IMG/VR virus record: IMGVR_UViG_3300019845_000023 | Span: 5,058-69,057 of that record | Strand: one strand, 5' to 3' | From: a virus | Lineage: Duplodnaviria; Heunggongvirae; Uroviricota; Caudoviricetes | DNA length: 64,000 bases | Shown here: in pieces, positions 4,150 through 48,222 of the stretch | Layout of the letters: each line of letters starts with the position of its first letter | Numbering within the stretch: the stretch's first letter is position 1 | Made by a program: the position numbers and the translations under genes | The notes under the pieces: model-generated | Seen by the model: only the letters and a program-made list of their open reading frames with translations | Database searches by the model: none | What the model was told of the DNA's origin: nothing

Positions 4150-4152
4150 ATT

Positions 4153-4605: not shown

Positions 4606-4610
4606 ATATC

Positions 4611-4690: not shown

Positions 4691-4740
4691 CACACGGCGG
4701 AACTATTGCTCCGCCGCGAATGCTTCAGTTTGAAGGGTTA

Positions 4741-5157: not shown

Positions 5158-5224
5158 AATAGCCTCACTTTCTGTGCCTTAGCACGTCGTAATTTGATTT
5201 TTTTTTGAATTGGTTTTCTTGACC

Positions 5225-5271
5225 TTTTCTATAAATATTATACCATATTTTTTAGAAAAAGTCAAATTTTT
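5225..5271 (-). promoter_or_regulatory. consensus promoter block
   Basis: TTGACT-17-TGGTATAAT. Confidence 0.6.
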
Positions 5272-5293
5272 CTTTTCTTTTTCCTTTCGGAAA

Positions 5294-5373
5294 TGGTGAC
5301 GGCAACGGGATTCGAACCCGTGACTCCAGCGTGAAAGGCTGGTGACTTAGACCACTTGTCGATGCCGCCATTA
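5294..5373 (-). tRNA. tRNA-Glu (TTC)
   Basis: paralog of 4611-4690; loop CUUUCAC. Confidence 0.55.
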
Positions 5374-5535
5374 GTTCGGTTTTACTTTGCCTTCTTATTT
5401 GGTAACGGAGCGTTTGCCACAAAGCCACATATCTGACGCTCATTGATAAATCGCTGATTGTCTGCCAGTGGTAGTTGAAACCGTAAATCCATGTTAACGC
5501 TTCGTAGGGTTTAAGGTAGCGGACCCTATGCACCT

Positions 5536-5614
5536 TGGTGGACCTTATGGGAATCGAACCCATCTGTTTTCCTGTTTGCAAAACAGGTGACCACCCCTTG
5601 CAGTCCCAAAGCCC
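5536..5614 (-). tRNA. tRNA-Ala (TGC), second copy
   Basis: G3-U70; loop UUUGCAA; 9-nt D-loop. Confidence 0.5.
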
Positions 5615-5730
5615 ATTTATTTGCAGAGAGGTAAAACTCATAAAACCCTTATCCGCTATCAAAGATACTGTCCGTTTTTCAGGAACGCCCAGAGTTGCTT
5701 CATATCTTTGAAGTTTTAATCTCTTTCTCA

Positions 5731-5775
5731 TTTTCTATAAATATTATACCATATTTTATAGAAAAAGTCAAATTC
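5731..5775 (-). promoter_or_regulatory. consensus promoter block
   Basis: TTGACT-17-TGGTATAAT. Confidence 0.55.
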
Positions 5776-5787
5776 TTTTCTGCTATT

Positions 5788-5873
5788 GGTCGGTAGGGAG
5801 GGACTCGAACCCCCAGCGTTTCAATGTCACTGTTTTACAGACAGCTTGCTTCACCCAGTTTGCATACCTACCG
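5788..5873 (-). tRNA. tRNA-Tyr (GTA), class II
   Basis: long variable arm; loop CUGUAAA. Confidence 0.6.
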
Positions 5874-5980
5874 ATTTGGTGGACATTCTACGCTCATCAG
5901 CGACAGTAGCCCTCACTGGGTTGCAATTTGGTTCTTTGTTAAAGGAGTTCCTCTCTTGCAACTGAAATCCCATCTCCTAT

Positions 5981-6057
5981 TGGTGCCGCCGAGAGGACTC
6001 GAACCTCCGACCTCTCGGTTATCAGCCGAGTGCTCTAACCAGCTGAGCTACGACGGC
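5981..6057 (-). tRNA. tRNA-Ile (GAT)
   Basis: loop CUGAUAA. Confidence 0.65.
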
Positions 6058-6146
6058 ATTTGGTGGCAATTAACGTCTTGCCGCACGACATATGGGTTAT
6101 TATTTTTGTACCTCTCGTAACCTCTTTTGTTCTTAATCGAGCCTAT

Positions 6147-6219
6147 GGTGTGGGATAAGGGAATTGAACCCTCGACACCAGTATGGCAAACTGGTATTTT
6201 ACCACTAAACTAATCCCAC
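6147..6219 (-). tRNA. tRNA-Gly (GCC)
   Basis: loop UUGCCAU. Confidence 0.6.
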
Positions 6220-6222
6220 ATT

Positions 6223-6299
6223 TGGCGAGCACGAAGGGACTTGAACCCTCAACCTCTCGGGAGACAACCGAGCGTTCTACTCATTTGAACTACGCACCC
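6223..6299 (-). tRNA. tRNA-Asp-like (GTC), atypical (U37, no GG in D-loop)
   Basis: loop UUGUCUC. Confidence 0.4.
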
Positions 6300-6392
6300 A
6301 TTTAATTTCTTACTTGCCGCAACGCACCTCACCAATCTTTCAATTGCAGGGAGTTGCACCCTATTCATTGCGACTTTCAGAGGGTTACCCCT

Positions 6393-6468
6393 TGGCGATT
6401 CCGACGGGACTCGAACCCGTAACTGTAGCGTGACAGGCTACTGACTTAACCAGTTAATCGACAGAACC
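6393..6468 (-). tRNA. tRNA-Asp (GTC)
   Basis: T-arm GCGGGTTCGAGTCCCGTC identical to E. coli Asp; loop CUGUCAC. Confidence 0.65.
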
Positions 6469-6511
6469 ATTTATCGGAAGCTTTTCCTCCAGAGGACGGT
6501 TTACCAACCGA

Positions 6512-6558
6512 TTTTCTATATATATTATATCATAATTTTTTCAGAAAGTCAAATTTTT
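6512..6558 (-). promoter_or_regulatory. consensus promoter block
   Basis: TTGACT-...-TGATATAAT. Confidence 0.6.
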
Positions 6559-6559
6559 A

Positions 6560-6856
6560 TTAGGTTATATCCTCGAAATCGCTTTCATCTACACCATACT
6601 CATCGAAGATTTCCTCTTCATTCTCGTCAGTGATTTCAACGATGTCGTAACCACAACCCTCAAGGAACTCATCAAACTCTTCGTCTGTGTAAGAGCCTTC
6701 CCAGCCGAACTCAAGGTGAGTCCAACCTTCTGCGTAATCATAGAGACCTTCTTCCATATAAGCCGCAGCCTGCTCTTCATTTTCTGCGATAAGGAAGCGT
6801 CTGTCATCTGTACCACTGTAACCACAGTAGTAAGTAGCCATATATTTATTTGCCAT
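6560..6856 (-). CDS. hypothetical acidic protein
   Basis: ORF track. Confidence 0.5.
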   Translation of the reverse strand: MANKYMATYYCGYSGTDDRRFLIAENEEQAAAYMEEGLYDYAEGWTHLEFGWEGSYTDEEFDEFLEGCGYDIVEITDENEEEIFDEYGVDESDFEDIT

Positions 6857-6858
6857 TT

Positions 6859-7044
6859 TTATTCTCCTTCGTAAATCTTTTTAAGGTCGAGGTAAAGCTG
6901 GTAAGCATCTACATAAGTAGAATTGTAACCGCCTTCGTTAATTGCAACGACCACATCTCTGTCAAGGAAACCATTTCTTATGAAAGTAACTTCATAGCCC
7001 TCGGTCATTTCTGCCGCTTCAAGAACTATTTTTTCATTTTCCAT
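6859..7044 (-). CDS. hypothetical protein
   Basis: ORF track; promoter 7065-7111. Confidence 0.45.
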   Translation of the reverse strand: MENEKIVLEAAEMTEGYEVTFIRNGFLDRDVVVAINEGGYNSTYVDAYQLYLDLKKIYEGE

Positions 7045-7064
7045 TTTTGTTCCTCTCTTTCATC

Positions 7065-7111
7065 TTTTCTATAAATATTATATCATATTTTATAGAAAAA
7101 GTCAAATTTTT
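7065..7111 (-). promoter_or_regulatory. consensus promoter block
   Basis: same motif. Confidence 0.6.
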
Positions 7112-7118
7112 ATTTGTA

Positions 7119-7207
7119 TGGTCGGCAGGGAAGGACTCGAACCTTCAAGACCCCTAAGGGCAACGGGGTTACAGCCCGCGACGCTACCAGTTACGTTCTA
7201 CCTACCG
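7119..7207 (-). tRNA. tRNA-Tyr (GTA), class II, second copy
   Basis: loop CUGUAAC; long variable arm. Confidence 0.55.
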
Positions 7208-7303
7208 ATTTGGTTGACGTTTAAGTCCGCCTCGCTGCTCATACCCGTTTTTGTTTCGACCGTGAGAACTACATTTGCTCCAAAACTCACTATAAACTTG
7301 TCG

Positions 7304-7381
7304 TTGGCGATACCGACGGGACTCGAACCCGCAACCTCTGGAGTGACAGTCCAGTGCTCTACTCTATTGAACTACGGCACC
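7304..7381 (-). tRNA. tRNA-Asp (GTC), second copy
   Basis: loop CUGUCAC. Confidence 0.55.
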
Positions 7382-7499
7382 ATTTAATTGGAGCGATTAA
7401 GCGAACAGAGGTGTCGCTCCAGTGCAGTCGCTGTGACGTTATCCACACCCTCTTGTAGCGTTTACCATATGACTATTAAGCTACCACAATTTTCGTTTT

Positions 7500-7585
7500 T
7501 GGCGGGACGGACAGGATTCGAACCTGCATAGGAAATAAATTCCGACGGTTAACAGCCGCCTGCCTAACCGTTAGGCTACCGACCC
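7500..7585 (-). tRNA. class-II-shaped tRNA with anticodon GTT (Asn-like)
   Basis: 16-nt variable arm; loop CUGUUAA; one U-U in acceptor. Confidence 0.4.
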
Positions 7586-7588
7586 ATT

Positions 7589-7665
7589 TGGCGGGAAGTA
7601 TAGGACTCGAACCTATGACACCGCGGTTAACAGCCGCGTGCTCTAACCAACTGAGCTAACAACCC
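7589..7665 (-). tRNA. tRNA-Asn (GTT)
   Basis: loop CUGUUAA; acceptor has two U-U mismatches. Confidence 0.5.
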
Positions 7666-7692
7666 ATTTAAAATTGTCTTTCTCTCTTGACC

Positions 7693-7739
7693 TTTTCTAT
7701 AAATATTATATCATATTTTCTAAAAAAAGTCAAATTTTT
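7693..7739 (-). promoter_or_regulatory. consensus promoter block
   Basis: same motif. Confidence 0.6.
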
Positions 7740-7757
7740 ATTTGTTATTGAAGATTA

Positions 7758-7835
7758 TTGGTCGGGCATCGGGGACTCGAACCCCGAACTTACTGATTAA
7801 GAGTCAGTTACGCTAAACCAATTGCGTCAATGCCC
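7758..7835 (-). tRNA. tRNA-Lys (CTT)
   Basis: perfect acceptor; loop CUCUUAA. Confidence 0.7.
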
Positions 7836-8093
7836 GATATCTTAGGGAGCAGTACCACTCCCTAACGAAGTAAGATTACTCCGAGTTGGTTCGTTAAGCT
7901 TGCCAACTACTCACCCCGTTACCCTACACCTGCAACGGTAGATGCCAACTCTTACTCTGCTGACGAGGGAGAGTCTATATCCGACCTACTCTCACTACGG
8001 GACAAGGATTTAACCATCTAACCCTCCTCAAGGTGTCCGTTTTATGCTTGGCGAGGACAAATCCAAGGTTACTACTCGGCTAACCACACCGTA

Positions 8094-8169
8094 TGGGGCT
8101 GGCGACAGGAATCGAACCTGCAACCTTCCGCTTACAAGGCGGACGCACTACCTATTGTGCTACGCCAGC
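8094..8169 (-). tRNA. tRNA-Thr (TGT)
   Basis: perfect acceptor GCUGGCG; loop CUUGUAA. Confidence 0.7.
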
Positions 8170-8188
8170 ATTTCTATCTTGTGCCCTT

Positions 8189-8263
8189 TGGAGATACTGG
8201 TGGGAGTCGAACCCACGACTCCAGTTTTGCAGACTGGTGTCTTAGCCTCTTGACGACAGTATC
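8189..8263 (-). tRNA. tRNA-Cys (GCA) with Glu-type D-arm
   Basis: loop CUGCAAA; D-arm UCGUCAAGAGGCUAAGACA. Confidence 0.55.
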
Positions 8264-8286
8264 TCCAAAAGGCACAAGAATTAAGG

Positions 8287-8667
8287 TTAATCGTCTTGTG
8301 ATATTATGTAATATGATATTTGAGTGTTTTCAATAAATTCGTCCACCCATTTGTTATAGTCTACGTCTTTATAAGCAAAGCCGAGTCTATTAAACAGATG
8401 ATTAGCGGTTTCATAGAGGTCTCCGCCATCTTCATAGAGAGATTCAACAACCCAGTCCATTAAGTCCTTTTCGTCACATCTTAAGCCACGAATGACTCCT
8501 GTATGGGTTACGTTATATTGCTCATTTGTCCAAGTGTACTCGACATCGTGGACGAGATTCTTTAGAGCTTCCTTTGCTTTCTCTATGTAATACTCAAGTT
8601 CACCGAGAACGCCTTCTATCTCTTCATAATTACCATCGGCGATTATATCTGATACGAAATCAAACAT
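8287..8667 (-). CDS. hypothetical protein
   Basis: ORF track; promoter 8685-8732. Confidence 0.5.
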   Translation of the reverse strand: MFDFVSDIIADGNYEEIEGVLGELEYYIEKAKEALKNLVHDVEYTWTNEQYNVTHTGVIRGLRCDEKDLMDWVVESLYEDGGDLYETANHLFNRLGFAYKDVDYNKWVDEFIENTQISYYIISQDD

Positions 8668-8684
8668 CTTTAAACCCCTTTCTA

Positions 8685-8732
8685 ATTTTCTATAAATATT
8701 ATATCATATTTTATAGAAAAAGTCAAATTTTT
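8685..8732 (-). promoter_or_regulatory. consensus promoter block
   Basis: same motif. Confidence 0.6.
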
Positions 8733-8763
8733 GATTTTTGTTTTTTGTTTTTCTTGGAGAAAT

Positions 8764-8838
8764 TGGCACCCTCGGTAGGAATTGAACCCACATCTCAACG
8801 TCCGTAGCGTCGCGTCCTATCCTTTGAACGACGAGGGC
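8764..8838 (-). tRNA. tRNA-Arg (ACG)
   Basis: loop CUACGGA. Confidence 0.6.
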
Positions 8839-8841
8839 ATA

Positions 8842-8918
8842 TGGTCGGAAGTGCGGGATTCGAACCCACAGCCTCGTGCGTCCAAGGCACGCCGTCTACC
8901 AAATTGACGTAACTCCCG
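8842..8918 (-). tRNA. tRNA-Pro (TGG)
   Basis: loop CUUGGAC. Confidence 0.6.
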
Positions 8919-12481: not shown

Positions 12482-12827
12482 TGGTGGAGGCGAGGAGAAT
12501 CGAACTCCTGTCCGAACCTCGTCATATCTATCGTCTACAAGCTTAGTCCATTTTTTTATACAAGTTTCACGCCTTAAAGGACAAACAGTCTGTTAACTCG
12601 TCTTGTCAAGATAGTCCATCAGGCACAGACAAGAACGTGCAAGTGAACCGTTTTTTATATAGACCATATCACAGTGTAGCTTTCACTGTTGAATGATATG
12701 GCAAAGTGTTAAAAGTGCTGCTCAGGCAGCGATTGCATAATCTGCGTTTATATTTAAAAGTGGCTATATGGGTGCCGCCCGCTTGCAGATAGGGAACTCA
12801 GAAATCCGTCGAAACCTTTACGCCCCC
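12482..12827 (-). ncRNA. ssrA: tmRNA (SsrA-like)
   Basis: 5' GGGGGCG...GGUUUCGACGG; 3' GGACAGGAGUUCGAUUCUCCUCGCCUCCACCA; G3-U70; internal tag frame ...ADYAIAA-UGA. Confidence 0.6.
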
Positions 12828-19393: not shown

Positions 19394-19606
19394 TTATCTC
19401 TCCCTTATGTATTGCCAAAGCTGATTACCAGCTTTTAACATCGCTTTTATTTCTTTACTATTTTCAATTTGTTCTCTCTCTTCTGGAGTATAAAGCGACA
19501 TAGACCAGCCGCAGAAAGCGGGACTATCGCCTTCATCGAAATCATAATTAAATCTATCAATTATTATTTCGATTTCTTCTTTCGTGAGGTCAAGAGTTAC
19601 TTTCAT
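19394..19606 (-). CDS. hypothetical protein
   Basis: ORF track. Confidence 0.45.
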   Translation of the reverse strand: MKVTLDLTKEEIEIIIDRFNYDFDEGDSPAFCGWSMSLYTPEEREQIENSKEIKAMLKAGNQLWQYIRER

Positions 19607-19833
19607 TTTACCTCTTCCTTCCAGTCTACATTATAGACTTTTTTTAAAGTCTTAATCATATGTTGTCTATAATCGGGAAACCTATTATCTTTCAGCCGAG
19701 CGATAATTTGTTCTTTTGAAGCTGGCTCGAAATTGTTCTCACCCATTGCTGTCAGACAATTCATATCGCCAAGAGCACAAATATCGCAATCAAAACAAGG
19801 GGGTACATCTTTCTCGTCCCAATGACCGAACAT
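19603..19833 (-). CDS. hypothetical Cys-containing protein
   Basis: ORF track. Confidence 0.45.
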   Translation of the reverse strand: MFGHWDEKDVPPCFDCDICALGDMNCLTAMGENNFEPASKEQIIARLKDNRFPDYRQHMIKTLKKVYNVDWKEEVK

Positions 19834-19835
19834 TC

Positions 19836-20189
19836 TTATTCCTCCTTTGTTAAGGGTTTGCCAATGAGTACAATCGCACTTTCATTTTCAATCCTCATTT
19901 TCTCACTCGGAAGTCCTTCCTCTAATGTCAAAATATCTCGCATCTGCATATCATATTCCTCAGTATCCTGTCTAAGAAATTCAAGATAATGAGGACAGTC
20001 GTCTACGTCCCACTCACTATTAGTAGGGTGCGGCTCCCAAGGCGGAGAACGGAAATAACATAAGCCATCACAGTCTGATGGTGCTTTTGGATACCGTTCT
20101 CTTAAGCCGCCAGTAGTTGTGTATTCAAAAAGCTCGCAGTCTTTACATTTTTCCATTATACTTTCCTCATCTTTATAAGGTCGATACAC
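19836..20189 (-). CDS. hypothetical protein
   Basis: ORF track. Confidence 0.5.
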   Translation of the reverse strand: MYRPYKDEESIMEKCKDCELFEYTTTGGLRERYPKAPSDCDGLCYFRSPPWEPHPTNSEWDVDDCPHYLEFLRQDTEEYDMQMRDILTLEEGLPSEKMRIENESAIVLIGKPLTKEE

Positions 20190-39351: not shown

Positions 39352-39937
39352 TACAATTCCTCCATATAAAAAAAATAGAGCAGACTAACGTCTACTCTTT
39401 TAAAACGGTAGTTTTTAAGAACACGATTGCCAGTCAATAGCCTTGACTGTTGGCTTAAACTGTAAAGTATAGCGCAATGCTTCCTTAACTGTTTTACTAT
39501 CATTTGATTGTTCAAAAATAGTTGCTGATGCAATCGTAATATAAGAACTCGACTTCCTGCTGGGTCCACCAGACTTTTCCTTCCATTACCCTGAAGGGGG
39601 ATAGGTTCTTATACCTATAAGCAAGTCGTCATGGTGACTAACCAGTGCCATACCATTTCAGATATGGGAATTTTACTATGACGTTTCCGACGCATCGGAT
39701 TCGCCGTCACCCTGTCCGAAGACCATAGGTGACTTCCTGTTATCTAAATTCATATCAAATCTATTATAGAAGATTGCTGATAGAAGTCGAAACCATTTTT
39801 TATTTTAACGAGGGCGCGGCACCACGTCCTCATCTTGCTCAGTGAGCTTTCTTTATTTATAGGACGTTGCTCTACGTCCATTCTCTCGTAAGTCAATACG
39901 AAGACTATTGCCCTCGTACTGTTGTATTTATAAGTGG

Positions 39938-39967: not shown

Positions 39968-41431
39968 TTACTTCCAAGAATATACATCCTTAGAAAGTAT
40001 CTTGACCATAGCCTCATAAGCATTGCACTCGATGAGTTCTCTAAGGTCATTGAATGGACCTACACCAGAACCGCTGCAGTAACTGATGTTATCGTAGATA
40101 GTACCGATGTAGTTGTCCTGACGTGCCTCAACATTCCAGCTTACGACCTTAGTCTCAGGGAGACCAGCCTCGCGAAGCTTCTTGTTCCACTTACCGACAA
40201 TGGAGTCAGCAGTGTCTGGACGTACGTCGTAGTCGAACTGACCGTCTGATATAACTACAAGAGCCTTTGGAACCTCGCGGGTTCTTACAGCAGTCTTATA
40301 GATAAGCTCGAAAGCCTTATCAAGGTTAGTGTTGTAACCCATGTCAGTTGACATTACCTTTCTAAGACACTCCTCAAGTCCCCAGCTATCCTCGAGGGAT
40401 ATGAAGTGAGGATTGTTAGTGAATGTCATATAAAGGTTGTGGTATGCACCCTTATTACGCTGAGCGAAGTAAGTTGCAAGACCAACAGAAGTTGCCATAG
40501 GCTGACCTAACATGGAGCCAGATACATCTGCCATTACGACAACATCGTACTCTCCGCTAACGTAGTTAGGAAGAGCCTTCCACTGAGCTTCGTCTACAGG
40601 GTCAAGATGGTAACGAGAGCTACCATACATATACTTGTACACGATGTCGTATGGGTAAAGAGTAGAAGCATTTACCTTAGCCTCGCCCTTTTCAAGGGAA
40701 GCCTTGTAAGCTGCAAATCTCTCCTGACAACGCTTGTTGTAAGTCTTGATATATCTGCTCATTGCAACAGATGGAACAGACTGGAAGTCTATCTCATCCC
40801 ACTTACCAGCAGACATCTTTGTCTCGACGACGCCGATGTGTGCACGAAGCTTTGCAAGAGTCTTACGATATGTACGCTCGGTAAGACCGAGGTAACGACA
40901 AGCTCTACGACCAAGCTTACGAGTCTCCTGAGAAGAAGTATTGATAGATGGCATCCACTTAGCAAGGATGGAGATAGGCTGGTTCTTAGCCATACCCTCT
41001 GCATCAGCACGAAGCTGCTTGGAGATAAACTCCCATACCTTTGCCTCAATTACTGGATACTTTCCGTTAAGGAAGATGAAAAGGTCATCCCATCTACCTG
41101 TATCAACAATGGTCTGAAGATTGCGGACAATCTTCTGAGGGTCGATACGACCGAGTTCTGCAAGCAGAATACGACCGATACGTCTCTCACCAAGACCACA
41201 GTCTCTGATGTTACGAGCGTAAAGGATAAGGTTATCTGCAAGAGTAGGGTTCTCCTGTCTTGCTGCCTTCCAATCGCTGATTATAGCGGAAGCATCTCTC
41301 TTTCTCATACCACCTATCTTTGCATAGATGTCAAGAAGAGCGCCGCCGTTTGTTGAACTATATGCGAGTCCACCGTTTTCGGTAAGTGTCTGATTAGCCA
41401 TTGCCTTAGCTGCGTTTACGAAATTACTCAT
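39968..41431 (-). CDS. vWA-domain protein with large N-terminal domain (possible TROVE/Ro60-like)
   Basis: MIDAS motif DVSGSM; vWA fold at C-terminus; N-terminal helical domain; start at MSNF after GGAGAG RBS. Confidence 0.6.
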   Translation of the reverse strand: MSNFVNAAKAMANQTLTENGGLAYSSTNGGALLDIYAKIGGMRKRDASAIISDWKAARQENPTLADNLILYARNIRDCGLGERRIGRILLAELGRIDPQKIVRNLQTIVDTGRWDDLFIFLNGKYPVIEAKVWEFISKQLRADAEGMAKNQPISILAKWMPSINTSSQETRKLGRRACRYLGLTERTYRKTLAKLRAHIGVVETKMSAGKWDEIDFQSVPSVAMSRYIKTYNKRCQERFAAYKASLEKGEAKVNASTLYPYDIVYKYMYGSSRYHLDPVDEAQWKALPNYVSGEYDVVVMADVSGSMLGQPMATSVGLATYFAQRNKGAYHNLYMTFTNNPHFISLEDSWGLEECLRKVMSTDMGYNTNLDKAFELIYKTAVRTREVPKALVVISDGQFDYDVRPDTADSIVGKWNKKLREAGLPETKVVSWNVEARQDNYIGTIYDNISYCSGSGVGPFNDLRELIECNAYEAMVKILSKDVYSWK

Positions 41432-41470
41432 TACACATCTCTCCTTCAAGATAATTATTTTTGTTTGCTG

Positions 41471-41523
41471 TTTTTATCTTACTTATATATTATACTATAA
41501 AATATAATTTTTGTCAAATATTT
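41471..41523 (-). promoter_or_regulatory. promoter block variant (TTGACA...TATAAT)
   Basis: diverged block. Confidence 0.45.
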
Positions 41524-42099: not shown

Positions 42100-42146
42100 T
42101 TTTCTATAAATATTATACTATATTTTATAAAAAAAGTCAAATTTTT
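42100..42146 (-). promoter_or_regulatory. consensus promoter block
   Basis: same motif. Confidence 0.6.
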
Positions 42147-42181: not shown

Positions 42182-42224
42182 TTACTCAGCTTTCGCTGAT
42201 GGTATCAATTTAAACACGATAGGT

Positions 42225-42316
42225 TTGTGGCGGACCGCCGCCTGTATAAACGGGGGAGTCGAACCCCACGTAACCAATTTCTGAGGGTTTACATTTGGTT
42301 TGCTGAACTATCGTTA
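42225..42316 (-). ncRNA. tRNA-like RNA (T-arm plus acceptor minihelix) between tRNA-Ser and a terminator
   Basis: GGGGUUCGACUCCCC T-arm; acceptor UGUAAAC/GUUUAUA; no D or anticodon arms. Confidence 0.3.
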
Positions 42317-42408
42317 TGGCGACGAAGTGAGGTGTCGAGCCCCATACCGCTCATCACGGTACCAACTGCTTTCAAGGCAGTGCTCAAGGCCGCTTGAGAT
42401 ACTCCGCC
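42317..42408 (-). tRNA. tRNA-Ser (TGA), class II
   Basis: stem ACUGC/GCAGU; loop CUUGAAA; long variable arm; CCA encoded. Confidence 0.55.
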
Positions 42409-42431
42409 ATTATCAAGATACGTTTTTTTCT

Positions 42432-42462
42432 CGTGCCTCTGCCAATTGGGCTACTCCCCGAT
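42432..42462 (-). other. orphan tRNA 5' half (acceptor plus D-arm) fused to leader module AAAAAAACGUAUCUUGAUAAU
   Basis: CGGGGAGUAGCCCAAUUGGCAGAGGC, same D-arm as tRNA 43542-43618. Confidence 0.4.
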
Positions 42463-42620
42463 ATGCTGCCCGAGACAGGAATCGAACCGTTACCCTCCGC
42501 CTTCTTCAGGCGGCGTGCACACCTATGCACTACAAGGGCAGTCTGGTCGGGGAGGATGGGATTCGAACCCACACTCATCGTGCTCCTAACGCATTAATTG
42601 AGTAGCTGACGTATCTTTAT
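42463..42620 (-). other. two degenerate tRNA-like segments (G33 loop, broken T-stem; 3' half without partner)
   Basis: partial cloverleaf elements only. Confidence 0.3.
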
Positions 42621-42696
42621 TGGTGCCGAGGGGGAGAGTCGAACTCCCTACGCCAAGCTCTTCAGGCTTGCGCTCTACCAGTTGAGCTACCTCGGC
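42621..42696 (-). tRNA. tRNA-Phe (GAA), second copy
   Basis: perfect acceptor; loop CUGAAGA. Confidence 0.6.
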
Positions 42697-42720
42697 ATTA
42701 TCAAGACAGTTATACTTATA

Positions 42721-42828
42721 AACTCTACCCGTTGAGCTACGCGACGCGAACGCCACGGTGGGATTCGAACCCACATCCCCCTTTGTGCAAAAAAGAAAAA
42801 GTTTTAAGTGTTTTGCTGAACTGCCTTA
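42721..42828 (-). other. orphan tRNA 5' half next to orphan T-arm/acceptor fragment
   Basis: GCGUCGCGUAGCUCAACGGGUAGAGU then UUAUAAG...UGUCUUGAUAAU. Confidence 0.3.
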
Positions 42829-42829
42829 T

Positions 42830-42906
42830 TGGTCGGGGCGGTGGGATTCGAACCCACAGAATCGTGATTTTGAGTCACGCACGTTTACCAGTTACGTCAC
42901 GCCCCG
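42830..42906 (-). tRNA. class-I-shaped tRNA with Leu anticodon CAA
   Basis: 5-nt variable loop; loop CUCAAAA; A73. Confidence 0.5.
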
Positions 42907-43033
42907 ATATAAAATGCAAAATATGAAGAGGATACCACACCCTGCAGAGGCCCATATTTATTTATATCCCGCACCATAAGCTTCTTCGCGCTTCAATCCG
43001 TCGACTGTCCTCATGGCCATCCGTGCGGTTTTC

Positions 43034-43109
43034 TGGGTGGAAAGATGAGATTCGAACTCACACCTTCATGGGCCACAACCATGCGCTCTACCATTAAGCT
43101 ACTCACCAC
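43034..43109 (-). tRNA. tRNA-His (GTG) with encoded G-1
   Basis: loop UUGUGGC; C73; extra 5' G. Confidence 0.6.
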
Positions 43110-43143
43110 ATCAATTCCGACTTTAACCCAAGTCGGCAGGGTT

Positions 43144-43176
43144 AAATAAAACCAAATCTGCCTCCACACAGTGGAG
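43144..43176 (-). terminator. rho-independent terminator inside tRNA array 2
   Basis: CUCCAC-UGU-GUGGAG then GCAGAUUUGGUUUUAUUU. Confidence 0.45.
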
Positions 43177-43216
43177 TTAGCTGTAGACAATAGCACTGAA
43201 CATAACTATTCCTACT

Positions 43217-43292
43217 TGGTCTCGGTTATAGGACTCGAACCTATGACTTTCTCCTTGTAAGGGAGACACTCTCGCCGCTGAGTTAAACCGAG
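43217..43292 (-). tRNA. tRNA-Val (TAC)
   Basis: loop CUUACAA. Confidence 0.65.
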
Positions 43293-43321
43293 ATTATCAA
43301 GACTCTCTATACCTTGCGGTT

Positions 43322-43394
43322 CCGGAAGGGGGATTCGAACCCCCATATGTACGATTTTAGGTCGTATGACTTAGCCACTTTGTCTATTCTGGAA
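43322..43394 (-). tRNA. class-I-shaped tRNA with anticodon TAA and C33
   Basis: loop CCUAAAA; no encoded CCA. Confidence 0.4.
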
Positions 43395-43541
43395 AGGAAT
43401 ATTGCTGAAGAGTCTTTATTTGGTTCGGGTATGCTTATCGGAGTCAAGTACTCGCAGTTCCTCTTTCGAGGTATTTTCTTCGGAGTAAAGACCTTAAGGT
43501 TCGCGTAACCTCTCGTGCCCTAACCCATATCCGAAACCCGA

Positions 43542-43618
43542 TGGTGCCGTTAGAGGGACTCGAACCCACACTAACCAGTTCCTAAGACTGGCGCCTCTGC
43601 CAATTGGGCTATAACGGC
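43542..43618 (-). tRNA. class-I-shaped tRNA with Leu anticodon TAG
   Basis: perfect acceptor; loop CUUAGGA. Confidence 0.5.
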
Positions 43619-43682
43619 ATTGTTAAACAGTTCGAGTTACGGTCAAACTGAAGGTAAGCACCGATTAAGCAGCCAGATACTC

Positions 43683-43913
43683 CTATTCAGAATAATCAAG
43701 CTTTTCAATTCTTTTCATATCGGAATATGTAACCTGCTTCCAACCACTCTTAGGGTGGTTAAAGGCACACATCCAGCAGGAACAATGAATTTTACCTTTG
43801 GCTAACTTTCCGTCGCAATCACAAAACCAATGATGAGTTTCATCAATGATATGTCTTTTGCGAGCTATGTGTTGTCTTCTCTGATAACGATAGTATGCTC
43901 TATCTCTTTCCAT
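43683..43913 (-). CDS. Cys/His-rich small protein
   Basis: ORF track; embedded in tRNA array. Confidence 0.4.
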   Translation of the reverse strand: MERDRAYYRYQRRQHIARKRHIIDETHHWFCDCDGKLAKGKIHCSCWMCAFNHPKSGWKQVTYSDMKRIEKLDYSE

Positions 43914-44053
43914 TGTGCCGCCCTCCGAAAAATTATAATAACGAATATAGGCAACCCACTACTTACTTTCCTTACCAGCGTAAATTAAGCACCTTCGCTA
44001 CGTATTGCTACTACCTCAGTATTTAATTTACTATGCCCTTCCCTCGATATTCG

Positions 44054-44575
44054 TTACTTAGTAATTCTGTTTGCGATACCAGAAGCAGCGTAGCTGTCTG
44101 GCTTGATAGCAACCTCGAAGCCGCAAGTCTTAATCCAAGAGGTAATCTCAGTAATAAGCTGATTTGTCTTACCTGCGTGACCAATGTCAGCGTGGACAGC
44201 GAAAGTAAATCTTCCGTCATTAGACATTTGCTCAAGGTCAATATCATAGTCGATAAGAGCATAAGCAAGAGCATCTACGAAACCTGTTGCGTTCTCAATA
44301 GAACGAGAAGTCTCTTCCTGTATCTTAGTCTTAAGAACTCTTATCTTTGGTATATCTTGCTTGCGATAGAAGAAAATGCCGCCATCACCGATACGGTGAA
44401 CAGCAATTACTTCCACCATTCTTGTGCACTTGTGGTTCTGGCTATCTGTACCCACAGTTATTTCGTATGAGGCGTTAGGTGCCTTTGCGATGTAGTCGGC
44501 TACAATAGAGCCTATCTGTGAATAACGAACCTTCTCACCATTACCACGAGTAAATATCTTCTCGGTAATCACGGT
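44054..44575 (-). CDS. hypothetical protein (possible RNase H-like fold)
   Basis: ORF; probable GTG start after AAGGAG. Confidence 0.4.
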   Translation of the reverse strand, partial: TVITEKIFTRGNGEKVRYSQIGSIVADYIAKAPNASYEITVGTDSQNHKCTRMVEVIAVHRIGDGGIFFYRKQDIPKIRVLKTKIQEETSRSIENATGFVDALAYALIDYDIDLEQMSNDGRFTFAVHADIGHAGKTNQLITEITSWIKTCGFEVAIKPDSYAASGIANRITK

Positions 44576-44728
44576 TAATCTCTCCTTTATATTCAAATAT
44601 TCAAGACAGTTATGTTAGCTACCTTTTGATTAAAATTCAAATGCTTTTAAAGAATTGCTGGACTGTCTTAGTGGTGATAATACGTGCCGCGGCACCACAG
44701 ACCGCTATATGTGGTCGCACGTATTCTC

Positions 44729-44815
44729 TGGTCGGCTCGGTGGGACTCGAACCCACACGCCCTTGCGGGCACCAGCTCCTTAGGCTGGCGCGTCTGCCAA
44801 TTCCGCCACGAGCCG
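44729..44815 (-). tRNA. tRNA-Leu (AAG), class II
   Basis: long variable arm GCCC-UUGC-GGGC; loop CUAAGGA. Confidence 0.55.
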
Positions 44816-44883
44816 ATTTATCAAGACTCATCTTGTGTTTTTATATGCCCAAAAAACTTTCAGAGTTGCTGCTGAGTCTTATC

Positions 44884-44960
44884 TGGTCGGAGATGCGGGA
44901 CTCGAACCCACGGCCTCTCGCTCCCAAGGCGAGCGCTCTACCAAACTGAGCTAATCCCCG
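44884..44960 (-). tRNA. tRNA-Pro (TGG), second copy
   Basis: loop CUUGGGA. Confidence 0.6.
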
Positions 44961-45030
44961 ATTAATTGGCGGCTTCAGGGACGCTACAAGATAACCAACC
45001 GCCAGAGTTATCACGCACTTAATGTCCCAA

Positions 45031-45107
45031 TGGTCGGCGAGATGGGATTCGAACCCACACTGAATGGATTTTAAGTCCATTGCCTCTGCCTGTTGCGCTA
45101 CTCGCCG
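45031..45107 (-). tRNA. class-I-shaped tRNA with Leu anticodon TAA
   Basis: perfect acceptor; loop CUUAAAA. Confidence 0.5.
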
Positions 45108-45174
45108 ATAAGCCTATTAAATAGGCTACAAGATATAACCCCTTTTACCGCGGGGCAGTCTCCCCAATATAATT

Positions 45175-45227
45175 GGTTGGGGAGATAGGAATTGAACCTA
45201 CAAAAGTGAGTTGCTGATATATCTTAG
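45175..45227 (-). other. orphan tRNA 3' fragment (T-arm plus acceptor CUCCCCA-A-CCA)
   Basis: GUAGGUUCAAUUCCUAU T-arm without a 5' partner. Confidence 0.3.
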
Positions 45228-45303
45228 TGGTCACGCCAGCGAGGCTCGAACTCGCATTTTAGCCTTGAAAGAGCTACTTCCTACACCTGTTAGAAGATGG
45301 CGC
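45228..45303 (-). tRNA. tRNA-Glu (TTC)
   Basis: loop CUUUCAA; Glu-like D region. Confidence 0.5.
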
Positions 45304-45324
45304 GATTCATCAAGATGTGCTTTT

Positions 45325-45400
45325 ACCTCTCATGAGGATTTGAACCTTACCGTCCCCTTTTTGGGGCTGTGCTACCAGATTACACCATAACGCCGAGAGG
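45325..45400 (-). tRNA. tRNA-like gene with atypical anticodon arm (CCCC-AAAAA-GGGG)
   Basis: good acceptor and T-arm; anticodon not assignable. Confidence 0.35.
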
Positions 45401-45456
45401 ATTTAAAATGGCGGCGTTAAAAACTTTAAAGAAAAAGTTGCTGACACATCTTTATT

Positions 45457-45530
45457 TGGTTGCGCAGACAGGACTCGAACCTATATCAACGGATAATGAC
45501 TCCGTTATGCTACCTTTGCACTACCGCGCG
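45457..45530 (-). tRNA. tRNA-Met-like (CAT) with C1-A72 mismatch (initiator-like?)
   Basis: stem ACGGA/UCCGU; loop GUCAUUA. Confidence 0.45.
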
Positions 45531-45539
45531 TTCTCTTTA

Positions 45540-45587
45540 TTTTCTATAATTATTATAGCATAAATTATAAAAAATGTCAAATTTTTG
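45540..45587 (-). promoter_or_regulatory. promoter block TTGACA-17-TATAAT within tRNA array
   Basis: AAATTTGACATTTTTTATAATTTATGCTATAAT. Confidence 0.6.
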
Positions 45588-46381
45588 ATTTCTAAGTCAT
45601 TTCGTAAGCACTCTCACCGCGTGAAGGTAGACTTAATTGAGAGTATTTCTTCAACAATCTTGGGTGCCGCCACATCTCCTGCACACAGGAGACAGGGTAC
45701 TCGAACCCCTCCATCGCCAGTTGCTGAAAGGAATTTCAACCTAATCTCATTAGTTATAAAGCCACTGAGCTGTAGCTATGCGAATAATTTGCCGCAATCA
45801 ACGGGCGACTATTCTAATCGCCGTCATAACCAACACAAGTTATGAACCATTGTAATGTCGTCAGGTTCCCACACTTACGCAGTAAACGCGCCGCTTAACC
45901 ACTTGGTTTAGGTATGTTCATAACCAAGAAATTTTCCCTTTTACATCGTCAGCAGTAGATGTCGTAATTTTATCGGTACTTCCCCGAATGGACATTGCGT
46001 GCCTATCGTACTCACGGTAATGTACGTAACCGCTGCCGTGCCAGCCAATACACGGATTTATACTGCCATCACACAGTCGGGCAGGTCTGTGATGGGTCTC
46101 TGCCCAATTTGGTTTTTGTGGTTTTAAACAGTCCAATGAGTAAACCTCAACTCAACTGTAGAGAATATTTGGTGGTTCGCTCTCTCTCAGCGAAGGTGTA
46201 AAGGGAGTTTAAACCACTTCCTCGTGGGGTTTTAACGTCTTTTCCTTGACAAGTCTCGCCGCAACCAGTACCATTTAAGGTACGCCAATCACTACGGGTT
46301 GCACATCCTTACTTTACCTGCCCAACAGGTCGGCGGTTGGACCCGCCAGTGTCCCTTTTATTCTCTTTAAGTAATTGGCAA

Positions 46382-46456
46382 TGGTGTGGGATAGGAGAAT
46401 CGAACTCCCACCGCCTGTTTGGAAGACAGGAATACTGACCGTTATACGAATCCCAC
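46382..46456 (-). tRNA. tRNA-Gly (TCC)
   Basis: perfect acceptor; loop CUUCCAA. Confidence 0.7.
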
Positions 46457-46469
46457 ATTAGTTCTTATT

Positions 46470-46518
46470 TTTAAGTATAATTTATTATAACATATTCTAA
46501 GAAAAAAGTCAAATTTTT
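46470..46518 (-). promoter_or_regulatory. promoter block variant within tRNA array
   Basis: TTGACT-17-TATAAT. Confidence 0.55.
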
Positions 46519-46528
46519 AATAGTGATT

Positions 46529-46654
46529 GTCTTTGTAGGGGTCTGTCTTCTTCTTATCATGGGTTGCGGCGATGATGTCTGGCATAACCTCTATGAGCTT
46601 CCAAAGAAGTACGGTTACGCAAACAACTATTAGGTACTGCATCAGACAGACCTC
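46529..46654 (-). CDS. small membrane peptide (41 aa)
   Basis: hand translation; AAGGAGG RBS. Confidence 0.35.
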
Positions 46655-46666
46655 CTTTCAAGACAT

Positions 46667-46743
46667 TGGTTTCTCCGCTTGGATTCGAACCAAGGAATGG
46701 CAGTTTTAGAGACTGCTGTCTTAAGCCTCTTGACGACGGAGAA
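46667..46743 (-). tRNA. amber suppressor tRNA (anticodon CTA), Glu/Gln-type body
   Basis: perfect acceptor UUCUCCG/CGGAGAA; stem GCAGU/ACUGC; loop CUCUAAA; D-arm UCGUCAAGAGGCUUAAGACA. Confidence 0.65.
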
Positions 46744-46747
46744 TTAT

Positions 46748-46822
46748 GGTTGCCGCTCTGGGAATCGAACCCAGTAAGACGGAGTTAGAGTCCGTTGTCC
46801 TCGCCAACTAAACGAAGCGGCA
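46748..46822 (-). tRNA. amber suppressor tRNA (anticodon CTA), Glu-type body
   Basis: perfect acceptor UGCCGCU/AGCGGCA; stem ACGGA/UCCGU; loop CUCUAAC. Confidence 0.65.
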
Positions 46823-46907
46823 AAATTCTCCAAGACGCCTTTACATTTACCTTTTAAACATTTTAAGTGTTCTATTGTAAGAAATGATTGCAGGATGCGT
46901 CTTTCAT

Positions 46908-46955
46908 TCTTATAAAATAATTATAACATATTTTATAAAAATTGTCAAATTTTTG
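46908..46955 (-). promoter_or_regulatory. promoter block variant
   Basis: TTGACA...TATAAT. Confidence 0.5.
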
Positions 46956-46963
46956 AGTGCTTA

Positions 46964-47227
46964 TTAGTCTACAGCAGTTGTAGTAGTTGTCTCTGTTGTA
47001 GTCTCTTCTGCCTCAGTTTCTGTGGTAGTAGTTGTTTCTTCGGTAGCCTCAGTTGTCTCCTCTGCTACTGTTGTAGCTTCAGTTGTTTCAGCTTCTGTTG
47101 TTTCAACTTCTGTTGTAACTACTGTTGTGGTTTCACTGTTGCTTCCGCTATCCTTTGATGTATCGCAAGAAACAAAAGTTACAGCCATAGCGCCTGCCAT
47201 AAGACAAGCTAAAATAGCCTTCTTCAT
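46964..47227 (-). CDS. Thr/Glu-rich lipoprotein
   Basis: signal peptide with lipobox-like Cys. Confidence 0.5.
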   Translation of the reverse strand: MKKAILACLMAGAMAVTFVSCDTSKDSGSNSETTTVVTTEVETTEAETTEATTVAEETTEATEETTTTTETEAEETTTETTTTTAVD

Positions 47228-47580
47228 TGTGTTTCACCTCTTTGCTTTTTAAATAAGAACCCTTGCTTGTATATCGAAACCTCGTATTATATCCACAGTC
47301 ACATCGTGATTTACTCCCACACAAGAGGGCTACCATGGAGAAGGGGCACGCCCCGAGATGGGCGGCAATAATCATAGAACGCTATACGAAAAGCATAACG
47401 TACTAAGGAACTCTTTCCACACGTGGTGGATGAGCTATCGTATTTCTACGACCCCGCACAGCGGGTAGAAGTCATAATGACCTCTTAACAGTAATTTTGA
47501 TTGAGCCGCGTTTCCTCTTTTAAGTCTGACTAACTGCGGTAAAAAATCCAGACTTCAAAATTACTTTTAAGAAATCATTA

Positions 47581-47675
47581 TGGCGCGGTCGGGGAGACTC
47601 GAACTCCCACACCGATTGCTCGATTACTCATAGTTTAGCAAACTACTGCCTTACCAAATTAGGCTTACGACCGCA
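47581..47675 (-). tRNA. tRNA-Ser (GCT), class II
   Basis: perfect acceptor; loop UUGCUAA; long variable arm. Confidence 0.55.
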
Positions 47676-47807
47676 TTATCAAGATACGTTTTTTCGATAT
47701 ACGTTGTTCTACCAGTTGAACTACTCCGCCATATTGGCGACGGAGGCAGGACTTGAACCTACACCTACGGCGTGATAGGCAATCTATTGCTTGCTGACGT
47801 ATCTTAG
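47676..47807 (-). other. orphan tRNA 5' half with leader module plus orphan 3' fragment
   Basis: GGCGGAGUAGUUCAACUGGUAGAAC...AAAAAACGUAUCUUGAUAAU; T-arm GUAGGUUCAAGUCCUGC. Confidence 0.35.
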
Positions 47808-47809
47808 TT

Positions 47810-47887
47810 TGGTGTGCCTGATGGGACTCGAACCCATGACCCCCTGATTAAAAGTCAGGTGTTCTATGCCAACTGAACTACAGGCAC
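47810..47887 (-). tRNA. tRNA-Lys (TTT)
   Basis: perfect acceptor; loop CUUUUAA. Confidence 0.7.
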
Positions 47888-47986
47888 ATTAACATCCGCT
47901 GAGCATCTTATTGGAACGCTTTCACCATGCGAGACCTCTATTGTTTATTTGCTGGCAGAATTTGAACCATTAACCATAGCGAATAT

Positions 47987-48062
47987 TTGGTGGGACGCCT
48001 GAGATTCGAACTCAGATAAGCTCGGTTATGAGCCGAGTGCACTAACCATTGTACTAACGTCC
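47987..48062 (-). tRNA. tRNA-Ile2/Met (CAT), Ile-derived body
   Basis: anticodon arm CUCGG-CUCAUAA-CCGAG parallels tRNA-Ile(GAT) at 5981. Confidence 0.55.
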
Positions 48063-48119
48063 CATTAAAGAAAGGAAAGGGGCATACTTTCAAGATGGCT
48101 ATGCCAGACCACTAAGTTA

Positions 48120-48193
48120 TTGGCTTCGGCAAAGGGAGTCGAACCCCTATCAACAGAGCCAAAATCTGTTGTCCTACCATTAGACGATACCGA
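48120..48193 (-). tRNA. tRNA-Gln (TTG)
   Basis: loop UUUUGGC; D region shared with Gln(CTG) at 4532. Confidence 0.6.
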
Positions 48194-48222
48194 AATCTAT
48201 GGAGTCATAAAGACTCCAAATA

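Follow-up and report, generated by a model that had tools for sequence, protein, structure and literature searches.

Permuted tRNA-shaped RNAs in the tRNA arrays of an uncultivated Caudoviricetes phage, a probable RNA set of a neighbouring Ro60-like protein

YrlA (Y RNA-like A) is a tRNA mimic of, among others, Salmonella, Mycobacterium smegmatis and mycobacteriophages; Chen et al. 2014 (PMC4201824) describe it from more than 250 bacteria and 22 phages, where its gene adjoins that of Ro60. Here we describe a set of tRNA-like RNA units in the tRNA arrays of a Caudoviricetes virus (IMG/VR record IMGVR_UViG_3300019845_000023, positions 5,058 to 69,057; this stretch of 64,000 nucleotides is called the window below). 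In a preliminary description made from the letters of the window, the spacers of the second array were taken to hold orphan tRNA halves, left by tRNA-gene cassettes through insertion into, or recombination with, the tRNA genes already present or, alternatively, made deliberately as decoys. The analysis indicates that these fragments are likely to be the two sides of circularly permuted, tRNA-shaped RNAs of the YrlA type, which would form a set with the product of a neighbouring Ro60-like gene.

Locus

ARAGORN places 44 tRNAs and a tmRNA in the window, all on the minus strand, with tRNA arrays at 2884-8918 (array 1) and 42465-48194 (array 2), and the minus strand was therefore read throughout. 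Sequence units are named U1-U10, U14, D1 and D2, and relatives are given L-numbers (IMG/VR loci); coordinates are collected in Table 1. At the gathering threshold, Rfam identified only the tRNAs and the tmRNA in the window, the spacers yielding neither a ribozyme nor any known processing element; a self-cleaving ribozyme was also rejected for want of Rfam support. A megablast search of the array against the INPHARED phages returned tRNA-sized matches and no relative.

The units lie in tRNA transcription units that run from promoter to terminator, and U9 is the final element ahead of the terminator of its array. Units U3-U10 are located 0.8-4.0 kb upstream of a gene for a Ro60-like protein (hereafter Ro-like), and D1 and D2 directly downstream of it, on the same strand; U2 lies 6.2 kb upstream of the gene and U1, in array 1, about 36 kb past its 3' end.

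Results

Read on the minus strand, a unit consists of a T-arm, a 7-nt acceptor 3' strand (often with N73-CCA), a linker of 4-12 A/U-rich nucleotides, an acceptor 5' strand, UA, and a D-arm. The unit is closed by an 8-bp helix of the form AAG-N5/N5'-CUUG, with a conserved (U/A)CAGCAA bulge after the 5' strand; this helix and bulge are referred to as the module. In 9 of the 17 segmented units, N73-CCA stands exactly after the acceptor strand. Unconstrained minimum-free-energy folds of U2, U4, U7 and U8 agree on an outer helix, a variable (V) hairpin, the T-arm, an acceptor hairpin of 7-8 bp, and the D-arm. The module is constant and the interior variable: it is a permuted tRNA mimic in U2, U4, U7 and U8, a T-arm only in U1 and U9, a plain hairpin in U5, U10, D1 and D2, and an ordinary tRNA(UAA) in U6.

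The pieces listed in the preliminary description are real, namely the 5' halves at 42432-42462 (U8), 42721-42747 (U7) and about 47700-47742 (U2) and the 3' fragments at 42225-42316 (U9), 42544-42620 (U8), 42748-42828 (U7), 45175-45227 (U4) and 47735-47807 (U2). They are not orphans, however: in every case a 5' half comes after the 3' half, and the acceptor strands of the two are complementary over 7 of 7 bp. The repeated leader that had been seen behind the 5' halves, (A)nCGUAUCUUGAUAAU, is the 3' strand of the 8-bp helix, and its partner strand, AAGAUACG, comes right after the CCA of the preceding tRNA and closely upstream of the 3' fragment. U2 and U8 each continue into A6-7-CGUAUCUU-GAUAAU and then the next tRNA, and U7 into the degenerate copy ...AACUGUCUU-GAUAAU, as had been described. 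A reading of CUUGAUAAU in this leader as a -10 promoter box was ruled out, the tRNA beginning immediately after it. That the fragments might belong to larger canonical tRNAs under a different fold does not hold literally; they are parts of larger RNAs, which are non-canonical and permuted. The duplicated T-loop reported at 3476-3500 turned out to belong to a canonical tRNA-Ala (Rfam 71.9 bits), of which it comprises the T-arm (UUCGACUCC) and the acceptor 3' strand (UUCGAGUCC), and the true unit of array 1 is U1 at 3385-3472.

The proposed insertion or recombination of tRNA-gene cassettes found no support in the halves themselves, since those of one unit match each other, in permuted order. Alignment to the intact tRNAs gave a consistent parent for U8 only (tRNA-Leu), and the halves of U2, U4 and U7 point weakly to different tRNAs. 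The D-arm that the preliminary description had found in common between a 5' half and tRNA-Leu(UAG) at 43542-43618 is indeed identical (GCCCAAUUGGCAGAGGC) and occurs twice only, at 42435 and 43593.

An odd tRNA of 76 nt (42465-42540) is nested whole in the acceptor loop of U8. It scores 33.7 bits in Rfam, has G at position 33 and lacks an encoded CCA. Its homolog in L005 (9671-9747), for which ARAGORN calls a 4-base anticodon (aaag), is free-standing with the same GAC/AUAU flanks, and it is missing in the U8 orthologs of L001 and L003, so some cassette-like rearrangement does occur; the nested tRNA does look like one local event of this kind. Possibly it is a tRNA of the frameshift type, or one that does not decode.

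A strict detector (T-arm plus an acceptor hairpin paired at 7/7 positions, with a short linker) returned 11 matches in the window, compared with a mean of 1.4 and a maximum of 5 in shuffled sequences. The matches judged genuine are U2, U4, U7 and U14; U8 was missed because its linker holds a whole tRNA. The strict version replaced an initial detector with 6/7 pairs and long linkers, which was too noisy (65 matches versus 15-21 in shuffles). A census of the window anchored on the motif found 17 stem+CAGC(A/U)A modules on the minus strand (shuffle mean 2.2, maximum 6) and three on the plus strand. AAG-N5...N5'-CUU helix pairs in a (U/C)CAGCAA context number nine, all within the tRNA arrays, and their N5 cores differ yet are complementary. 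An artefact of tandem tRNAs, against which Chen et al. caution, was rejected for the units because the acceptor strands are mutually complementary and the remainder of both hypothetical tRNAs is missing; matches with an 'acca' linker in L135-L137 are artefacts of this type.

The comparative dataset was built from the Ro-like protein, which belongs to the large DUF2828 family. More than 3,700 of its homologs were scored and 439 viral loci found; 80 IMG/VR loci with a Ro-like relative of 36-81% identity (1.5 Mb) were used. Comparison of the array with those of related phages, which the preliminary description had proposed, revealed orthologous units in six contigs (L001, L003, L005, L007, L009 and L010; protein 48-81% identical) that show the same synteny and carry units with and without CCA. 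Even phages with no more than 36-81% identity in the Ro-like protein conserve the units, with compensatory changes, which argues against the insertion or recombination idea.

Across the 80 loci, stem+CAGCAA modules are found 282 times on the strand of the Ro-like gene and 88 times on the opposite strand, three or more modules occur in 45 versus 14 loci, and strict permuted cores number 65 versus 7. Module starts are concentrated at the gene (52 in the 1 kb before it, 25 in the 1 kb after it, and about 6 per kb elsewhere), a peak that is seen in the 54 full-length loci. A scan of viral contigs for TAAAGACNNNTCAGCAA was too unspecific (119 matches, mostly chance) and was recycled as a negative control: 108 of these 119 unrelated loci with the 5' motif have no closed module, and the Ro-like gene is present in 0 of 119.

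Covariation was determined for 32 structurally registered units, which were segmented by their stems, with the unpaired parts padded with N. Both sides change in 19 of 22 pairs, in all four helices, and the covariation score is 0.87, compared with 0.24 for shuffles and 0.11-0.17 for slid registers. This segmentation took the place of a MAFFT alignment of the raw units, in which the columns of acceptor and linker came out scrambled. In a motif-free k-mer test of 64 cores, the top upstream 6-mer was CAGCAA (59% versus 3.3% expected) and the top downstream 6-mer GUCUUG (38% versus 1.9% expected).

Pfam assigns DUF2828, DUF7788 and a weak VWA domain to the open reading frame (ORF) at 39968-41449; NCBIfam gave no match. 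The DxSxS motif of its MIDAS (the adhesion site that depends on a metal ion) reads DVSGSM, and D308, S310 and S312 are invariant in 57 homologs. In a Foldseek search with a structural model of the protein (predicted local distance difference test score, pLDDT, 91), the best nine matches were all Ro60/TROVE proteins, over 515-556 aligned columns. The modelled protein thus has the Ro60 fold, a HEAT-repeat TROVE ring followed by a vWA domain. Sequence searches linking DUF2828 to Ro60 failed, and only structure comparison worked.

The leader of the Ro-like gene begins with a small stem+motif hairpin that is conserved in L003 (9951-9984) and L005 (9950-9984) and is a candidate autoregulatory site. 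Equivalents of D1 are present in L003, L005 and L007 at about 11.5 kb. From the stop codon of the gene to the first downstream Y-like unit there are two tandem sub-threshold matches to Rfam 6A RNA (RF02925; 39787-39884, minus strand), one of which scores 36.5 bits with E = 2e-5, against a gathering score of 41.2, and the other 22 bits. The window also encodes RNA-repair proteins, namely Rnl2- and Rnl1-type RNA ligases and an AAA_33 kinase-HD protein, as well as a Band-7 protein; in the jumbo-phage literature, this gene set and TROVE proteins are tied to RNA repair (PMC7824862).

Table 1. Positions of the RNA units and associated features in the window.
Feature	Position	Strand	Elements and context
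U1, array-1 module	3385-3472	minus	AAGAUAGG/CCUAUCUU, CACAGCAAACC; T-arm-like hairpin only (3401-3417); between tRNA-Ala and tRNA-Phe
tmRNA, standard	12482-12827	minus	
Terminator-like hairpin	39377-39398		after D2
D2, 115-nt unit	39423-39537	minus	stem+AUCAGCAA; z = -4.2
D1, 240-nt unit	39549-39790	minus	stem+AUCAGCAA; 3' of Ro-like gene; non-tRNA-like interior; z = -2.4
Ro60-like protein gene	39968-41449	minus	493 aa; DUF2828 + DUF7788/vWA; DxSxS MIDAS
Mini hairpin	41447-41481	minus	stem+ACAGCAAAC; starts Ro-like leader, abuts Shine-Dalgarno sequence GAAGGAG
Promoter of Ro-like gene	41489-41517	minus	the gene's own; perfect sigma-70 type
U9	42216-42314	minus	7-bp helix ACGAUAG/CUAUCGU + UUCAGCAAACC; T-arm 42252-42268; GC hairpin; no D-arm
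U8, Leu-tRNA-derived permuted mimic	42415-42617	minus	helix AAGAUACG/CGUAUCUU; T-arm 42556-42572; acceptor 3' strand + A-CCA 42544-42554; acceptor 5' strand 42454-42460; D-arm 42435-42451; orthologs without nested tRNA L001 6039-6163, L003 9554-9679
U7, permuted tRNA mimic without CCA	42703-42827	minus	helix AAGGCAGUU/AACUGUCUU; T-arm 42758-42774; acceptor hairpin CGUGGCG-UUCG-CGUCGCG 42740-42757 (5' strand 42740-42746); D-arm 42722-42737; orthologs L001 5831-5955, L003 9340-9468, L132 from 9227
U6, stem+UCAGCAA module	43299-43416	minus	AAGACUCU/AGAGUCUU; encloses normal-order tRNA, anticodon UAA, 43318-43393; orthologs L001 5270-5385, L005 8941-9050, L010 6733-6846
RNaseH-like (PF04308) gene	44054-44596	minus	inside array 2, conserved there in close relatives; U10 in leader
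U10, short stem+CCAGCAA module	44603-44669	minus	AAGACAGU/ACUGUCUU; 5' leader of RNaseH-like ORF
U5, short stem+CAGCAA module	44823-44880	minus	AAGACUCA/UGAGUCUU; no tRNA-like interior; tRNA-Pro/tRNA-Leu spacer
U4, permuted tRNA mimic	45130-45225	minus	helix AAGAUAUA/UAUAUCUU; T-arm 45185-45201; acceptor 3' strand + A-CCA 45174-45184; acceptor 5' strand 45160-45166; D-like hairpin atypical; ortholog L001 1381-1473
U3, stem+UCAGCAA module	45312-45452	minus	AAGAUGUG/CACAUCUU; encloses tRNA-like RNA of ambiguous topology: acceptor hairpin AACGCCG-CCA...CGGCGUU, D-arm, 5-A-loop hairpin, T-like arm
Promoter	45552-45580	minus	perfect TTGACA-17-TATAAT; heads unit with tRNA-Met, U3, tRNA-Glu, U4 ... 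to U9
U14, T-arm + 7-bp acceptor hairpin	45674-45710	minus	no CCA; closing module not identified; in 851-nt spacer; ortholog L001 2767-2803
U2, complete permuted tRNA mimic	47681-47805	minus	helix 5' strand AAGAUACG 47798-47805; UCAGCAAG 47790-47797; helix 3' strand CGUAUCUU 47681-47688; T-arm 47746-47762; acceptor 3' strand + G-CCA 47735-47745; linker AUAU 47731-47734; acceptor 5' strand + UA + D-arm 47706-47730; between tRNA-Lys and tRNA-Ser

Discussion

The consensus structure of YrlA (stem, T-arm, acceptor-like stem, D-arm, stem) has the identical permuted order. The Rfam YrlA model (RF02553) aligns with U2 over its full length (1-114) at 33.4 bits (E = 2e-4 when 6.2 kb were searched, 4e-6 locally) and with U7 at 31.0 bits. 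YrlA and the units share paired 5' and 3' ends, an interior of T-arm, acceptor-like hairpin and D-arm, and an optional V hairpin; both adjoin, on the same strand, a gene for a Ro60-type protein (within about 4 kb for U3-U10), the partner here being a relative at the level of the fold only. The variable interior on a constant module mirrors the modular design of Y RNAs. Unlike YrlA, the units have a short terminal stem of 8 bp that directly abuts tRNAs, a CCA that is gene-encoded rather than added, and a location in the spacers of tRNA arrays; there are at least a dozen modules in the genome instead of one or two, and the presumed partner is a DUF2828 protein without TROVE annotation.

A close phage counterpart is the Ro60 of Thermus phage phiLo, which binds two adjacent Y-like RNAs, Yrl1 and Yrl2 (PMC12135203; PDB 9KOP, 9L5Y). 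There, too, a phage encodes a Ro60 ring with a vWA domain, the Y-like RNAs adjoin the gene, and a stem flanks a bulge with the protein-binding motif. In phiLo, however, the bulge is CGAA, the RNAs are two rather than many and are not described as tRNA mimics or as parts of tRNA arrays, and the protein is recognizable as TROVE by sequence, unlike the DUF2828 protein of the window. In the searchable literature, outside which many subscription papers lie, we found neither such elements in phage tRNA arrays nor DUF2828 as a Ro partner.

We therefore consider it likely that the fragments are the two sides of YrlA-type RNAs that work like YrlA, together with the Ro-like protein. The units would be transcribed within the tRNA operons, their ends joined by the 8-bp helix. 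T-arm, 7-bp acceptor-like hairpin and D-arm would fold into a tRNA-like elbow, with a short loop closing the acceptor end, and the helix with its (U/A)CAGCAA bulge would stand in for the anticodon arm. Most likely, the module serves the neighbouring DUF2828-vWA protein as its binding site, and the ring of that protein would grip it; the copy in the leader of the Ro-like mRNA would permit autoregulation. RNase P and 3' trimming of the adjoining tRNAs would free the units. RNase P probably also opens the acceptor loop where the stem measures 7 bp and N73-CCA is encoded, and the encoded CCA would favour this cut. The product would be two 'halves' that pair with each other and have a free CCA end. 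In this it would resemble the YrlA of Mycobacterium smegmatis, whose acceptor stem is 7 bp long and which, after a cut by RNase P, exists as two 'halves' and carries CCA in vivo (PMC4201824). The phage Ro-Y ribonucleoprotein (RNP) set could then cooperate with the tRNA supply and the RNA-repair genes (Rnl1, Rnl2, kinase-HD, tmRNA), either in quality control, surveillance or repair of tRNA and other RNA, or in the capture of host RNA-decay or tRNA-binding factors such as PNPase.

A further step, which is rather unlikely, would make the opened, CCA-bearing units two-piece tRNA bodies that lack an anticodon, enter tRNA pathways and are held at the module by the Ro-like ring. Synthetases that do not depend on the anticodon might aminoacylate them (U8 being Leu-like), or host defence enzymes or factors that target tRNA might bind them, and with Rnl1, Rnl2 and the kinase-HD protein they might form a platform for sensing, shielding or repairing tRNA. 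If true, Y RNAs would gain a definite biochemical task, and a large Ro/Y RNP family would be defined in uncultivated phages.

Several observations weigh against an RNA set of the Ro-like protein. The kinship of the protein to Ro60 is at fold level only; Pfam does not call it TROVE (PF05731), and searches of the PDB sequences with the single sequence and with a profile returned vWA domains only. The YrlA scores of U2 and U7 are far below the gathering score (69 bits), the model gives no match to U4 and U8, and in seven distant loci no unit attains the threshold. The units lack the Ro-binding motif described in the literature, GNCGAAN0-1G (CGAA), and have (U/A)CAGCAA in the equivalent position. 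The generic module detector has a background of 88 wrong-strand matches in 1.5 Mb. The units used for covariation were chosen for intact stems, so that their pairing is 100% by construction and the pairing percentage is no evidence, in contrast to strand bias, shuffles and slides. Moreover, the module is also found ahead of ORFs (U10, the leader hairpin) and around a normal tRNA (U6), and could therefore be a general processing or stability signal instead of a Ro site. What the analysis shows is the anatomy of the units, its conservation and covariation, the fold of the protein and the co-localization; expression of the units, their binding and cleavage, and their role are predictions. Since the units fall short of the score threshold and lack GNCGAA, they are not members of the curated Rfam YrlA family, and a search of the whole window at the gathering threshold returned no YrlA.

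The most serious rival, to which we nevertheless give a low probability, is an element for processing or insulation in tRNA operons that is independent of Ro. Helix and CAGCAA would be the signal for a nuclease or another factor (the RNaseH-like PF04308 protein, or host RNase E or RNase III), and the tRNA-like interiors would do no more than assist in recruiting RNase P. Such an element would account for modules around non-tRNA interiors and one normal tRNA and before ORFs (U5, U6, U10), and it is in line with the conservation of the RNaseH-like gene within the arrays of close relatives and with the larger number of modules in loci that have this gene (7.3 on average versus 3.2 without). No more than 12 of the 80 Ro-like loci have a detectable copy of the gene, however, and the modules persist without it; the RNaseH-like protein was rejected as their partner. 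Modules peak immediately beside the Ro-like gene, the leader of that gene carries a mini-module, and the permuted tRNA fold is the known YrlA design, all of which speaks against a Ro-independent signal; a helix of 8 bp is also too short for a classical RNase III site.

Improbable as well, and ranking behind the processing element, is the idea of free-standing tRNA decoys without Ro, that is, two-piece mimics with a true acceptor end and tRNA elbow, and no anticodon, that sequester defence enzymes or toxins by which the host targets tRNA, or become aminoacylated. These RNAs have no anticodon loop, the part that most known anti-phage tRNA nucleases cleave. The conserved CAGCAA module, the units without tRNA part or CCA, and the tight linkage to the Ro-like gene would also be left unexplained. 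The decoy idea would nevertheless suit the 9 of 17 units that encode N73-CCA and have acceptor stems of 7 bp, the Leu-type identity features of U8 (A73, Leu D-arm), and a phage heavily invested in tRNA supply and repair; phage tRNAs and RNA repair are regarded as counter-defence (PMC7824862). A decoy function may be layered on the same RNAs. The preliminary suggestion of deliberately made tRNA-like RNAs was thus correct in kind, in that the units appear to be YrlA-type tRNA mimics; 'decoy' is a conjecture about function.

Circularly permuted tRNA genes, a type mentioned in PMC3400036 and present in Cyanidioschyzon merolae and some green algae, have the 3' half upstream of the 5' half, and the intervening piece is removed by RNase P and 3' processing; they rebuild a full anticodon arm by cleavage guided by a bulge-helix-bulge (BHB) motif and ligation of the termini. 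The units resemble them in the order of the halves, the perfect complementarity of the 7-bp acceptor stems, the encoded N73-CCA, UA at positions 8-9, the tRNA-like D- and T-loops and, in U8, a clear derivation from tRNA-Leu. The Rnl1- and Rnl2-type ligases of the window, which also encodes the kinase-HD protein, could join the termini, and RNase P and 3' trimming could open the acceptor loop to leave a functional linear tRNA. This is very unlikely all the same. The termini do not rebuild a 5-bp anticodon stem with a 7-nt loop but form the 8-bp helix with its conserved, non-tRNA bulge and variable A/U-rich flanks, so that there is no anticodon arm, and the would-be loop has no conserved U33, purine 37 or anticodon. 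A BHB-like motif is absent, CCA is missing in nearly half of the units, and the identical helix and motif close units without any tRNA part. To our knowledge, bacteria have no splicing endonuclease. A related design is two-piece (circularly permuted) tmRNA, whose tRNA-like domain is permuted and whose acceptor-end loop is processed to give two paired chains with a chargeable CCA. The units differ from it in having neither a tag reading frame nor pseudoknots, and the Rfam tmRNA_permuted model scores only 16.9 bits on U7.

Least probable is recombination debris or cassettes between tRNA genes, non-functional halves left by insertion, deletion or an integrase: although both halves of U8 resemble tRNA-Leu and its nested tRNA is one real cassette-like event, this reading is largely refuted by the syntenic conservation of the units with compensatory changes in phages at 48-81% protein identity, and it does not fit the strong strand bias and clustering by the Ro-like gene, the same order and closing module in every unit, or the finding that the traceable parents and decay of tRNA pseudogenes or integration fragments are not seen, U2, U4 and U7 having no consistent parent tRNA.

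An RNA set of the Ro-like protein would bring about a dozen structured RNAs into one system, which tRNA finders and Rfam leave blank or would call pseudogene debris. It would extend the Ro60/Y-RNA partnership to the DUF2828 family, which is common on viral contigs of 50-290 kb, and provide a concrete candidate binding module (AAG-N5/N5'-CUUG 8-bp stem with (U/A)CAGCAA bulge) that is distinct from the CGAA of known Y RNAs. As the Y-like RNAs are built into tRNA operons, tRNA-processing enzymes are predicted to release them. The natural variants (with and without CCA, with and without tRNA domain, with a nested tRNA) make the question of why Y RNAs mimic tRNA experimentally approachable. Chen et al. 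dropped matches that overlap tandem tRNAs and searched TROVE-annotated genomes only (PMC4201824), and these filters would have hidden the present class. Any survey that drops YrlA-like matches over tRNA arrays or is confined to TROVE genomes would miss it.

Additional observations

Nearly every transcription unit on the minus strand is preceded by a repeated promoter cassette, AAAAAUUUGAC(A/U)-N17-UAUAAU, in an A/T-rich conserved context, with copies at 46920-46948, 45552-45580, 41489-41517 and 42112-42140 and many in array 1. Its reverse complement produces spurious T-arm-like matches on the plus strand.

The 851-nt spacer between tRNA-Gly(UCC) and tRNA-Met (45531-46381, minus strand) is gene-free, with no ORF longer than 72 aa and no Rfam match even at E <= 1. 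It houses the permuted core U14, has the promoter repeat at its end, is partly conserved in L001, and may be a large structured RNA. In another relative, L172, a ROOL RNA (19448-20076; 351 bits) adjoins the tRNAs. Four array-1 spacers of 230-344 nt (3552-3781, 2958-3301, 4230-4531 and 7837-8093) contain neither an ORF nor a stem+CAGCAA module.

Two neighbouring tRNAs with a CUA anticodon (46667-46822; amber suppressors, labelled 'Pyl' by ARAGORN) also occur in L001, L007 and L010, which suggests read-through or recoding of UAG in this phage clade. A tRNA-Ser(UGA)-like gene of 93 nt (42316-42408) was missed by ARAGORN and scores 43.2 bits with the Rfam tRNA-Sec model (gathering score 47); at the matching position, a tRNA-Ser(UGA) is called in both L003 and L005. 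The 124 nt at 43418-43541 are RNA-like, with a 6-bp acceptor-type terminal stem, an ACCA 3' end and no recognizable cloverleaf, and may represent a tRNA that carries a large insertion, or some other tRNA-like RNA. Three 'Leu' tRNAs (42830-42906, CAA; 43542-43618, UAG; 45031-45107, UAA) combine a Leu-type D-arm with a short variable region and a length of 77 nt, in contrast to the normal tRNA-Leu(AAG) at 44729-44815, which has 87 nt.

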